A stretch of DNA of 64,000 bases from Escherichia coli (GTDB lineage Bacteria; Pseudomonadota; Gammaproteobacteria; Enterobacterales; Enterobacteriaceae). This document shows positions 22,711-52,051 of the stretch, piece after piece. The DNA lies in the NCBI RefSeq assembly GCF_003334385.1, contig NZ_QOWN01000004.1; one strand, 5' to 3'. Every line of letters starts with the position of its first letter. Position 1 is the first letter of the stretch. The translations under genes and the position numbers were made by a program. The notes under the pieces are model-generated. The model had not been told where the DNA came from, did not search any database, and saw only the letters and a program-made list of their open reading frames with translations.

Positions 22711-22899
22711 CAGGGACATCCTTTTATCATCGGGAATACGAAAGAAAAGGGAGAATAAACGCCTTACTTATAGAACAGTGAAGAATGCCACAATTTTACG
22801 CTTTGAAAATGATGACACTATCACAGTTGGCGCATTCATTAACGATAGGGTATAAGTAAAACAATAAGTTAACACCGCTCACAGAGACGAGGTGGAGAA

Positions 22900-26123: not shown

Positions 26124-26297
26124 ATCTTATCCGACCTTTCAGGCCAGATCCTCGGAAGGGGAAGTTGATTAATTTGTGTGAAATACACATTGAAAGCCGA
26201 TTCGAAGAAAGTGAACCGGCATTTTCAGTGGCTAGTATAGCGTAAGGTACTGTAAAGTCGCCAGAGGGTTAAAATTCAGACTGCTGATAAATGCAAT

Positions 26298-26402
26298 ACT
26301 GCCTGATGCGCTATGCCAATCAGGCCTACGCAGTCCTTGCAATATATTGAATTTGGACGATTTTGTAGGCCTGGTAAGGCGTTTACGCCGCATCTGGCAT
26401 AA
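26298..26402. repeat. REP/BIME cluster between ytfL and msrA
   Basis: tgcctgatgcgctatgccaatcaggcctacg ... gtaggcctggtaaggcgtttacgccgcatctggca: inverted REP units. Confidence 0.75.
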
Positions 26403-35324: not shown

Positions 35325-35435
35325 GCTATGCCTGATGCCGATTCGTAGGCCGGATAAGGCGCTCGCGCCGCATCCGGCGGTGGTGCGCTGAAGCCTGATG
35401 CGACGCTTACCGCGTCTTATCATGCCTACTGGGAG
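35325..35435. repeat. REP/BIME cluster between ytfQ and ytfR
   Basis: gcctgatgccgattcgtaggccggataaggcgctcgcgccgcatccggcgg ... gcctgatgcgacgcttaccgcgtcttatcatgcctac. Confidence 0.75.
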
Positions 35436-41561: not shown

Positions 41562-41695
41562 CGGCCTTAGCCTGATATAGTGTGCGTAGGCCGGATAAGG
41601 CGTTCACGCCGCATCCGGCATTTGAGCATAGTGCCTGATGCGACGCTTGATGCGTCTTATCAGGCCTACAGGTGCACCGCATCCGGCAAACCATA
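41562..41695. repeat. REP/BIME cluster between mpl and yjgA
   Basis: gtaggccggataaggcgttcacgccgcatccggca ... gcctgatgcgacgcttgatgcgtcttatcaggcctac ... ccgcatccggca. Confidence 0.8.
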
Positions 41696-42360: not shown

Positions 42361-43713
42361 ATGGCACTTGCAATGAAAGTAATCTCTCAAGTTGAAGCGC
42401 AGCGCAAGATTCTGGAAGAAGCAGTTTCCACTGCGCTGGAGTTGGCCTCAGGCAAATCGGACGGTGCGGAAGTTGCCGTCAGCAAGACCACCGGCATTAG
42501 CGTAAGCACGCGTTATGGTGAAGTGGAGAATGTTGAATTCAATAGCGATGGCGCGCTGGGGATCACTGTTTATCACCAGAACCGCAAAGGTAGCGCATCA
42601 TCCACCGATTTAAGCCCGCAGGCCATTGCCCGTACTGTACAGGCGGCGCTGGATATTGCCCGTTATACCTCGCCAGATCCCTGTGCCGGCGTGGCAGACA
42701 AAGAGCTGCTGGCCTTTGACGCACCAGATCTCGACTTGTTCCACCCTGCGGAAGTTTCCCCGGATGAAGCCATTGAACTGGCGGCCCGCGCAGAACAGGC
42801 GGCATTGCAGGCGGACAAACGCATCACCAATACCGAAGGTGGCAGCTTTAACAGCCACTACGGTGTCAAAGTTTTTGGCAACAGCCACGGCATGTTGCAG
42901 GGTTACTGCTCAACGCGTCATTCGCTCTCCAGCTGTGTAATTGCCGAAGAAAATGGCGATATGGAGCGTGATTACGCCTACACCATTGGTCGTGCGATGA
43001 GCGATCTGCAAACGCCAGAGTGGGTTGGGGCCGACTGTGCTCGCCGTACTTTATCGCGCCTGTCACCGCGTAAACTCTCCACCATGAAAGCGCCGGTCAT
43101 TTTTGCCAATGAAGTGGCAACCGGGCTTTTTGGCCATCTGGTGGGGGCGATAGCGGGTGGATCGGTTTACCGTAAATCCACCTTCCTGCTGGATTCGCTG
43201 GGTAAACAAATTCTGCCGGACTGGCTGACCATTGAAGAGCATCCGCATCTGCTGAAAGGGCTGGCATCGACGCCATTTGACAGCGAAGGTGTGCGCACCG
43301 AGCGTCGCGATATTATTAAAGATGGCATCCTGACTCAGTGGCTGCTGACCAGCTACTCGGCGCGGAAACTGGGGCTGAAAAGCACCGGACATGCGGGCGG
43401 TATTCACAACTGGCGGATTGCCGGACAAGGGCTAAGCTTCGAACAAATGCTCAAAGAGATGGGTACCGGGCTGGTGGTGACGGAGCTGATGGGCCAGGGC
43501 GTGAGTGCCATTACCGGTGATTATTCCCGTGGTGCAGCGGGCTTCTGGGTAGAGAATGGCGAAATTCAGTATCCGGTTAGCGAAATCACCATCGCAGGTA
43601 ATTTAAAAGATATGTGGCGCAATATTGTCACCGTCGGTAACGATATTGAAACACGCAGTAATATACAGTGTGGTTCTGTGCTGTTGCCGGAGATGAAAAT
43701 CGCCGGGCAGTAA
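42361..43713 (+). CDS. pmbA: Metalloprotease PmbA (TldE)
   Basis: 450 aa, [42 protein letters not shown]... Confidence 0.96.
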
Positions 43714-43892
43714 AAAACTGGCGCGACCTGCCGCGCTATAAACTAAAAAATTACACAAAATCATTCGCACTGCATCGAGACGGAAAGTGAATGAGGGCCG
43801 GGGAGCGTACTCGCAGTACGTGACCCGGGCGAATGAGCGTAGCCGTCGATGAGGCAGTGTGAAGGATGAAGTGTAAATAAAAAAGGAAGTGA

Positions 43893-44282
<390 letters not shown>

Positions 44283-44326
44283 TTCCTCATTTCCCTGTTG
44301 CCTGCACTCAGGTAACAGGGAACTTA

Positions 44327-44791
44327 TCATCGCAAATGATGCACCACCTGATTGCTGCTGCCGCGCCAGATCAGGGAAGGGTCTTTTAAATCCTGCACAA
44401 ATTTGCCGTCGACCAGTACGTTAATCAAATCAACAACCTGCATTTGCGCAGCGTTGAGATCGTCGAGTTTATAGCCTGTCCACACCCAGATGTCTTTATC
44501 CGGACACTCGGCGCGGATGCGTTTTACCAGTTTCAGAATATCCGGCACGTTTTGCGGATGCAGCGGATCGCCGCCGGAGAGGGAAATCCCCTGGCGTTTG
44601 ATACGAGTGTCATTCAGATCGTTAATGATCTGGTCTTCCATTGCTTTGGTAAATGGCTGACCAGAATTTACCCGCCATGTGCTTTTGTTATAGCAACCGG
44701 GGCATTCATGAACACACCCGGAGACAAACAGGGTGCAGCGAGTGCCGGGGCCGTTGACGATGTCGACAGGATAGTACTGATGATAATTCAT
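44327..44791 (-). CDS. nrdG: Anaerobic ribonucleoside-triphosphate reductase activating protein NrdG (radical SAM)
   Basis: 154 aa, MNYHQYYPVDIVNGPGTRCTLFVSGCVHECPGCYNKSTW... Confidence 0.96.
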   Translation of the reverse strand: MNYHQYYPVDIVNGPGTRCTLFVSGCVHECPGCYNKSTWRVNSGQPFTKAMEDQIINDLNDTRIKRQGISLSGGDPLHPQNVPDILKLVKRIRAECPDKDIWVWTGYKLDDLNAAQMQVVDLINVLVDGKFVQDLKDPSLIWRGSSNQVVHHLR

Positions 44792-51779: not shown

Positions 51780-52051
51780 TATATCGCCATAAATGCTACG
51801 AATATTATTGGATTCTCCTTATTATTTGCGGCGCTTTTTTCACTTACCGGAGGTTATATGGAACCTGATCCCACGCCTCTCCCTCGACGGAGATTAAAAC
51901 TTTTTCGGTAAGCCCGTCTTTTCACGGCGTTACCGGATGCGTAAGGCCGTGACGTTTTAACGTCCCTGCTCAGCTTTATTACCTTCAGGTAAGGCTTCGC
52001 CACGCCTGAAGACATTTCTGTACTGTTTCAGACAGTGCGGAGGGACTCCTT
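51780..52051 (+). promoter_or_regulatory. mgtA 5' leader (Mg2+/proline-responsive attenuation region containing mgtL)
   Basis: ~270-nt untranslated leader between the PhoP box and the mgtA start, containing the mgtL ORF; boundaries approximate. Confidence 0.5.
51858..51911 (+). CDS. mgtL: mgtA leader peptide MgtL (proline-rich, 17 aa)
   Basis: ATG at 51858 after GGAGG; encodes [17 protein letters not shown] within the long mgtA 5' leader. Confidence 0.8.

Follow-up and report, generated by a model that had tools for sequence, protein, structure and literature searches.

The stretch of Escherichia coli DNA analyzed here (64,000 nt; hereafter the window) carries mpl, yjgA, pmbA (tldE), cybC, nrdG, and nrdD in the E. 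coli order, and a spacer of 182 nt separates the end of pmbA at 43713 from the start of cybC at 43896, both genes being on the + strand. RefSeq records carry no annotation in this spacer, the features of which we list in Table 1. The cybC Shine-Dalgarno motif was kept in 28 enterobacterial spacers. The short GC-rich hairpin next to pmbA was common to alleles with and without the repeat element described below (filled and empty alleles) and to some Citrobacter; given that AAAAAA precedes it on the + strand, it resembles a terminator (hairpin plus U-run) on the - strand only. At the matching site, Atlantibacter and Kluyvera had a hairpin with a T-run on the + strand.

Table 1. Features of the pmbA-cybC spacer and its neighbours in the window, with Rfam matches elsewhere in the window and related loci in other genomes.
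Feature	Position	Strand	Remark
pmbA (tldE) coding sequence	42361..43713	+	Upstream neighbour
GC-rich hairpin GCGCGACCTGCCGCGC	43721..43736	.	Just 3' of the pmbA stop codon; not ERIC
Full ERIC/IRU element, 128 nt	43750..43877	+	Consensus alignment, profile match, fold
ERIC left arm including left terminal inverted repeat (TTACAC...)	43750..43786	+	Pairs with right arm; family helices 1 and 2
ERIC central part (hairpin of the earlier note)	43787..43839	+	Family helices 4 and 5
ERIC right arm (...GAAGGATGAAGTGTAAA)	43840..43877	+	Pairs with left arm
cybC Shine-Dalgarno AAGGAAG	43883..43889	+	6 nt 5' of ATG (43896); outside ERIC
cybC (cytochrome b562) coding sequence	43896..44282	+	Downstream neighbour, intact in window strain
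Rfam matches elsewhere in window	2828-2912, 22711-22833, 26185-26242, 26322-26364, 35348-35426, 41589-41666, 51843-51958		
Opposite-orientation copies, Citrobacter / S. enterica subsp. diarizonae	L021 1334-1457; L024 1340-1463; L026 1343-1465		
Spacers in decay series of the Citrobacter/diarizonae entry	L017, L018, L023, L022, L029, L032, L056		

The earlier note had described a 52-nt hairpin at 43786-43837. We found this sequence with an offset of 1-2 nt (the string spans 43787-43839) and, as the note had it, 59 nt upstream of the cybC ATG. Both the palindrome CGTACT-CGC-AGTACG (6 bp, 3-nt loop) and the outer CCGGG/CCCGG arms were present, forming central stems at 43798-43802/43824-43828 and 43805-43811/43815-43821 around a loop at 43812-43814, and the GAATGAG direct repeats were located at 43789-43795 and 43831-43837. 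While the central hairpin is real, the boundaries drawn around it took in only the central 52 of 128 nt. Given that inverted repeats enclose it (43751-43776 with 43851-43876, 26-nt arms that are 77% complementary, and 43761-43768 with 43829-43836, 8-nt arms that are fully complementary), the real unit is an imperfect palindrome of 128 nt, of which the hairpin forms the middle third. The right arm of this unit ends 5 nt before the cybC Shine-Dalgarno motif and 18 nt before the ATG.

On the + strand, the 52-mer had a predicted folding energy of -24.2 kcal/mol (z = -4.07), and none of 200 dinucleotide shuffles was as stable, while the - strand gave -15.9 kcal/mol (z = -2.56). The complete element with its immediate flanks (43745-43882) was predicted to fold into one continuous hairpin on the + strand (-63.8 kcal/mol, z = -9.7) and to reach -44.7 kcal/mol (z = -6.0) on the - strand. 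Its termini TTACAC and GTGTAA pair with each other, giving the terminally inverted palindrome of about 127 bp that characterizes ERIC.

ERIC (enterobacterial repetitive intergenic consensus) sequences are non-autonomous, MITE-like palindromic repeats of roughly 127 bp, known in enteric bacteria since 1990-91, and genome-wide catalogues of E. coli ERICs exist. The family was reportedly treated by Sharples and Lloyd in 1990, by Hulton et al. in 1991, and by Wilson and Sharp in 2006. The sequences of primers ERIC2 and ERIC1R are both contained in the printed consensus; to these two sites the window copy has 7 and 9 mismatches, respectively, and so would not prime ERIC-PCR.

Judged by its sequence, the pmbA-cybC palindrome is a full-length ERIC (IRU, RU-1) copy, and as such a kind of sequence that has already been described. 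As reference we used the 127-nt E. coli ERIC (RU-1) consensus of Wilson and Sharp (2006), as printed in Table 1a of PMC2759123 (Delihas, 2007). The window + strand corresponds to the reverse complement of this printed consensus, aligning with it end to end at 66% identity. An nhmmer profile built from the consensus, Salmonella SeRU-1, and three E. coli paralogues, with the window copy left out, matched 43752-43875 over profile positions 3-125 of 127 (71.9 bits, E = 8.4e-21), which was the sole match in the 64-kb window. The paralogues in the queA-acpH, puuR-puuC, and rhlB-gppA spacers were identical to the window copy, end to end, at 66-76% of positions in a multiple alignment and 69-77% by blastn; the nearest of them is the queA-acpH copy, at 76%. 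All three share with the window copy the ERIC subgroup with right arm GAAGGATGAAGTGTA. The purine-rich GAATGAG repeats are also a family feature, with GTGAGTGAA and GTGAGCGAA as the counterparts that flank the central stem in the consensus.

Searching a 138-nt region around the element with blastn against 5,426 complete E. coli genomes returned the orthologous site and other places (median of 3 in each genome), and the additional ones (69-77% identity) spanned nearly the whole query. The ERIC consensus as query found a median of 13 places per genome (range 2-22) in the same 5,426 genomes, and copies also occurred in loci of Citrobacter, Salmonella, Yersinia, and Morganella. The earlier note had offered a miniature repeat as one of three readings, and that reading was the right one: the element is a full-length ERIC/IRU with other copies in the same genomes. 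Structure conserved in other enterobacteria and copies elsewhere, whose joint absence the note would have counted against its proposal, were both found.

In sequence, length, structure, copy number, and location between the pmbA stop and the cybC start, the element is thus a member of the ERIC family, and only the flanking TA duplication is degenerate. Paralogues are bounded by TA at both termini (TA-TAC...GTA-TA), while the window copy reads AT-TACAC...GTGTA-AA. In the empty allele, TA does stand at the matching position, but the sequence to its left is not the same, which makes a clean duplication unreadable. We take the missing terminal TA as decay of an old copy, and membership in ERIC stands. 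A single ERIC copy, with the origin, transcription, and role proposed below, is almost certainly the best explanation of the locus as a whole.

In the queA-acpH and rhlB-gppA copies, the downstream ATG overlaps the right ERIC terminus (GTGTATATG and GAGTATG; L002 1126, L004 1134), so the ribosome-binding regions of acpH and gppA must sit inside the ERIC right arm, GAAGGATGAAG.

There is next to no chance that the element belongs to REP/BIME or to another non-ERIC repeat family. Like REP/BIME, it is a palindrome between E. coli genes, of a kind co-transcribed in mRNAs, and REP-type matches (Rfam naRNA4) do occur elsewhere in the window, but its length, sequence, and structure match ERIC over 127 positions and the Rfam scan of the element region showed nothing like a REP-type match. 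REP units measure 35-40 nt, are rich in GC, and occur in clusters, whereas the window element is a single 128-nt unit of different sequence, and the full-length ERIC alignment refutes REP/BIME identity. The earlier note was correct in stating that this is not a canonical REP unit. The two naRNA4 matches lie at 35348-35426 and 41589-41666; the other features of the window that exceeded the Rfam gathering score were the RpsF leader, the ES239 sRNA, STnc450, ES036, and the Mg riboswitch 5' of mgtA.

That the hairpin is an independent small-RNA gene, another of the note's suggestions, or a transcription terminator is very unlikely. The hairpin is certainly very stable, and a U-run, AUUUUUUAG (complement of 43742-43750), comes after it on the - strand. 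However, the terminal stem next to this U-run is AU-rich, there is no upstream gene on the - strand for which a terminator at this site would be needed, and the cybC-nrdG spacer has a hairpin of its own. On the + strand, the U-tract after the hairpin is missing: the sequence there reads AAAUAAAAAAGG, unlike an intrinsic terminator of pmbA. Our terminator scan returned only - strand candidates, of which the sole one inside the spacer was the GC hairpin next to pmbA. At E <= 10, comparing 43400-44400 with Rfam yielded nothing beyond chance matches to families of eukaryotes, viruses, and archaea (mir-51, sobemo_FSE, sR30), the scan of the whole window at gathering threshold gave nothing at the element, and no sigma-70-type promoter match was found in 43600-44400. 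Moreover, the element is repeated and dispersed, unlike a unique gene. The note's remaining suggestion, a protein-binding site, found no support, as the repeat-element table of a review gives no DNA motif for ERIC (PMC2229807).

We further compared 14 copies of 6 genera, including Escherichia, Citrobacter, Salmonella, Yersinia, and Morganella, together with the two consensus sequences. The family consensus hairpin had 33 pairs, with 96.5% of cells paired and both partners changed in 12 pairs; no column shuffle out of 500 reached the observed values, and sliding the 3' partner by 1-3 columns as a control reduced pairing to 33-41%. Double changes between consensus and window copy keep several positions paired; for instance, a U-A pair in the central stem of the consensus is G-C in the window copy, and an A-U pair in the long stem is C-G. 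The strand equivalent to the window + strand folded clearly better than its complement in 13 of 15 copies, because of G-U pairs on that strand.

The element was present in 3,886 of the 5,426 complete E. coli genomes (72%), while the other 1,540 (28%), which fell below 80% coverage of a 501-nt query, were classed as empty. All 11 sampled rows at 72% coverage were exactly 128 bp shorter, and a sampled row of lower coverage (strain S1) had an IS1 in the empty site. In some empty alleles the flanks are 100% identical to the window, and the surrounding 370 nt can be 100% identical. Aligned by eye from the spacer sequences, the empty allele reads GCCGCGC-CAAATCTTCATAA-TAAAAAAGG and the filled allele GCCGCGC-TATAAACTAAAAAAT-[ERIC]-AA-TAAAAAAGG. 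The two also differ in about 13-15 nt to the left of the ERIC site (TATAAACTAAAAAAT versus CAAATCTTCATAA; L006 455-508 versus window 43714-43895), and here the empty allele is similar to the spacer of Citrobacter sp. Awk 4, CATAAACTTCAATAATAAAAAGG, which has no ERIC. The empty-allele junction is thus like an ancestral, Citrobacter-like spacer and not like an excision scar. Simple excision was rejected as its source, given that the AATCTTCATAA segment of the empty allele is missing from the filled allele, the empty allele being in this like the Citrobacter Awk4 spacer, and deletion between TAAA microhomologies would leave a different junction. The empty allele may be an old polymorphism or an import.

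The IS1 of strain S1 (L008 736-1490) lies in an ERIC-free spacer with target duplication CAAATCTTC, indicating that the same short spacer also takes IS elements.

Among 57 loci recovered with CybC, one genome per species, pmbA-cybC synteny was kept in most. Most enterobacterial pmbA-cybC spacers measured 30-95 nt and had no ERIC, which makes the empty state ancestral. An ERIC at the same site and in the same orientation as in E. coli was found in E. albertii, E. whittamii, and two further Escherichia species, suggesting that the element would have entered in an ancestor of the genus Escherichia, 37 nt downstream of the pmbA stop and 18 nt upstream of the cybC start. Two Citrobacter species and S. 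enterica subsp. diarizonae carry an ERIC in the opposite orientation, which overlaps or abuts the pmbA stop (TAA-TACCCGTCATAC...), and in Yersinia pestis and Y. similis another copy lies about 110 nt 3' of pmbA. Given copies in both orientations and at other sites, this spacer has been struck by ERIC at least twice independently. Other Citrobacter retain only the two ERIC termini (~46 nt) or the stub TACTCGT (7 nt); compared as sequences, these remnants are a stepwise decay series of an independent insertion, produced by internal deletion. The window copy is probably no longer mobile, given its 66% identity to the consensus and its degenerated flanking TA.

Several loci of this set had additional features. 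In Citrobacter amalonaticus S646 (L015 1316-1500), the spacer of 185 nt contains a remnant of the ERIC termini and, after it, another kind of palindromic element, about 100 nt long (GAGCCCGGCCATCAGGC...GCCTGATGGCCTGGCTC). Additional ERIC matches, full or partial, were located 1.0-1.7 kb 3' of the cybC start in E. whittamii (L013 3077-3166), Citrobacter sp. R56 (L041 2511-2599), and Morganella (L046 2532-2657). A 396-bp contig labelled Caballeronia mineralivorans (L065) is E. coli-like from the end of pmbA through the ERIC to the start of cybC, with 98% identity in the CybC segment and 100% in the PmbA end, and is probably assembly contamination.

The window copy has diverged slowly within Escherichia. 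Between E. coli and E. albertii, 11 of 128 ERIC positions differed, compared to 72 of 221 fourfold-degenerate sites in pmbA and 18 of 56 in cybC; between E. coli and E. whittamii, these values were 4 of 128, 53 of 227, and 15 of 59, respectively. The ERIC copy has thus diverged about four times more slowly than the fourfold-degenerate sites of both flanking genes (binomial p about 1e-10), with the caveat that low divergence is common in enterobacterial intergenic DNA and that fourfold-degenerate sites may overstate the neutral rate. Of nine transition-type changes at paired positions among 13 Escherichia orthologues, eight led to G-U on the + strand, where the - strand would have A-C mismatches, and one was the reverse (one-sided p about 0.02). 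This asymmetry rests on nine events, and a strand-biased C-to-T mutation rate could yield the same; if a C-to-T bias on the non-template strand were the cause, transcription of the + strand would still be implied. Together, slow divergence and the G-U asymmetry point to constraint on the + strand RNA.

It is nevertheless a real prospect, if somewhat short of an even one, that the copy is a neutral relic that leaves the expression of pmbA and cybC unaffected and owes its conservation to general intergenic constraint or chance. The element is absent from 28% of E. coli genomes, which makes it dispensable; the predicted context of the Shine-Dalgarno motif is the same with and without it; four transversions among the 13 orthologues break pairs; and the central stem of the E. 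albertii copy is weaker (-49.8 kcal/mol for the copy), which looks like drift rather than strict maintenance. A relic of this kind accords poorly with divergence fourfold below that of the flanking genes' degenerate sites, with the 8:1 excess of changes preserving + strand pairing, and with the compensatory changes across the family. At the other end, the ERIC could have been domesticated as a cis-acting RNA leader of cybC, its + strand hairpin selected since before the split of E. coli and E. albertii and accompanied by an old polymorphism in which 28% of genomes are empty. We consider such domestication rather unlikely; if it were true, the two alleles would set different expression levels of cytochrome b562 or PmbA.

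Given the 18-nt gap between ERIC and ATG and the lack of a promoter-like site in the scanned interval, cybC mRNA would have to start inside the ERIC or carry all of it. A supplement of start sites in K-12 versus EDL933 lists pmbA (14-nt leader) and nrdD and has no cybC entry, which is absence of evidence only, and the supplement of a Cappable-seq study had no entry under the gene name or coordinate prefix. It is quite unlikely that the ERIC carries the cybC promoter or another cis DNA signal, with the conserved right arm as a promoter that replaced an ancestral one. The short distance to the ATG would suit this, as would a right arm identical at 38 of 38 positions in E. coli, E. whittamii, and E. 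albertii and the lack of any listed cybC start site further upstream. However, the sigma-70-type scan found no match, right-arm polymorphisms exist within E. coli, and ERIC-free alleles and species with spacers of 30-60 nt encode an intact cybC, indicating that a promoter inside the spacer is unneeded. Read-through from pmbA, past a hairpin lacking a U-tract, would be the simplest and most likely source of cybC mRNA.

In such a + strand transcript, the element is predicted to form an independent hairpin, long and stable (-64 kcal/mol). Folding the spacer in silico with and without ERIC gave the same pairing around the Shine-Dalgarno motif and the start codon, so that the ERIC is predicted to be a separate fold module that leaves the cybC ribosome-binding site as in ERIC-free alleles. 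The most likely role would be that of a stable hairpin co-transcribed in pmbA-cybC mRNA, a structural module of the intercistronic leader that is passive or of weak benefit and could act as a barrier or processing point for mRNA decay, as reported for ERIC-containing mRNAs of Yersinia.

ERICs are known to be co-transcribed with flanking genes and to alter mRNA stability depending on orientation; in Yersinia, they acted through an RNase E site to change how stable the upstream transcript is, and orientation was crucial (PMC2229807, PMC3184786, PMC10969869). Like those described by De Gregorio et al. (2005; via PMC2229807, PMC3184786, PMC10969869), the window copy lies between co-oriented genes near stop and start codons, and co-transcription and an RNA hairpin would be expected for it too. 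Unlike in Yersinia, the stop codon and the window ERIC have a distinct GC hairpin between them. The reported effect is orientation-dependent, and the window copy is opposite to the copies that abut the pmbA stop in Citrobacter and Salmonella, for which reason the RNase E mechanism may not apply here. The AU-rich terminal repeat (AUGAUUUUGU) would be present in RNA only if the - strand were transcribed, so a stable-hairpin effect would be expected in place of RNase E unmasking.

Compared to ERIC/IRU/RU-1 in general, the window copy is similar in length (128 versus 127 nt), is collinear with the consensus over positions 3-125, and has terminal inverted repeats, a long hairpin, and a central stem-loop between purine-rich direct repeats. 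It is also typical in being intergenic between co-oriented genes, in having several copies per genome, and in its presence/absence polymorphism among strains, and atypical in its divergence (66% identity to the consensus) and degenerate flanking TA (AT...AA). ERIC resembles Correia/NEMIS of Neisseria and other MITEs (RUP, YPAL/RU-2, RU-3) in that all are small, non-autonomous palindromic repeats with TA termini, transcribed into structured RNA that RNases can process; these families differ in that their sequences and hosts are unrelated, and Correia elements carry promoter and IHF motifs, of which none are reported for ERIC (PMC2229807 Table 1).

The correct label for the spacer element is ERIC/IRU repeat, and there is no case for chasing a new small RNA or binding site. 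Beyond annotation, the finding is of little importance: the allele split, the repeated insertions, in two orientations and across genera, into one spacer of 30-60 nt, the stepwise decay in Citrobacter, and the constraint signal are minor additions to knowledge of ERIC evolution. Our literature search turned up no relevant work that connects ERIC with cybC or pmbA. The filled and empty alleles are a natural pair for testing the effect of an ERIC on the expression of neighbouring E. coli genes.

For cybC itself, the literature describes a sigma-54 site inside the gene, regulation by RyhB in Salmonella, and higher expression in REL606 than in MG1655. The window strain has an intact gene of 128 aa, and the K-12-lineage strains BW25113, MG1655, and MC1061 are without about 26 nt, GTGAGCAATGCGTAAAAGCCTGTTAG (window 43890-43915; L001 1639-1650; L005 4476-4489), a loss that takes away the start codon of cybC together with the first codons of its signal peptide, the gene being annotated as a pseudogene in MG1655.
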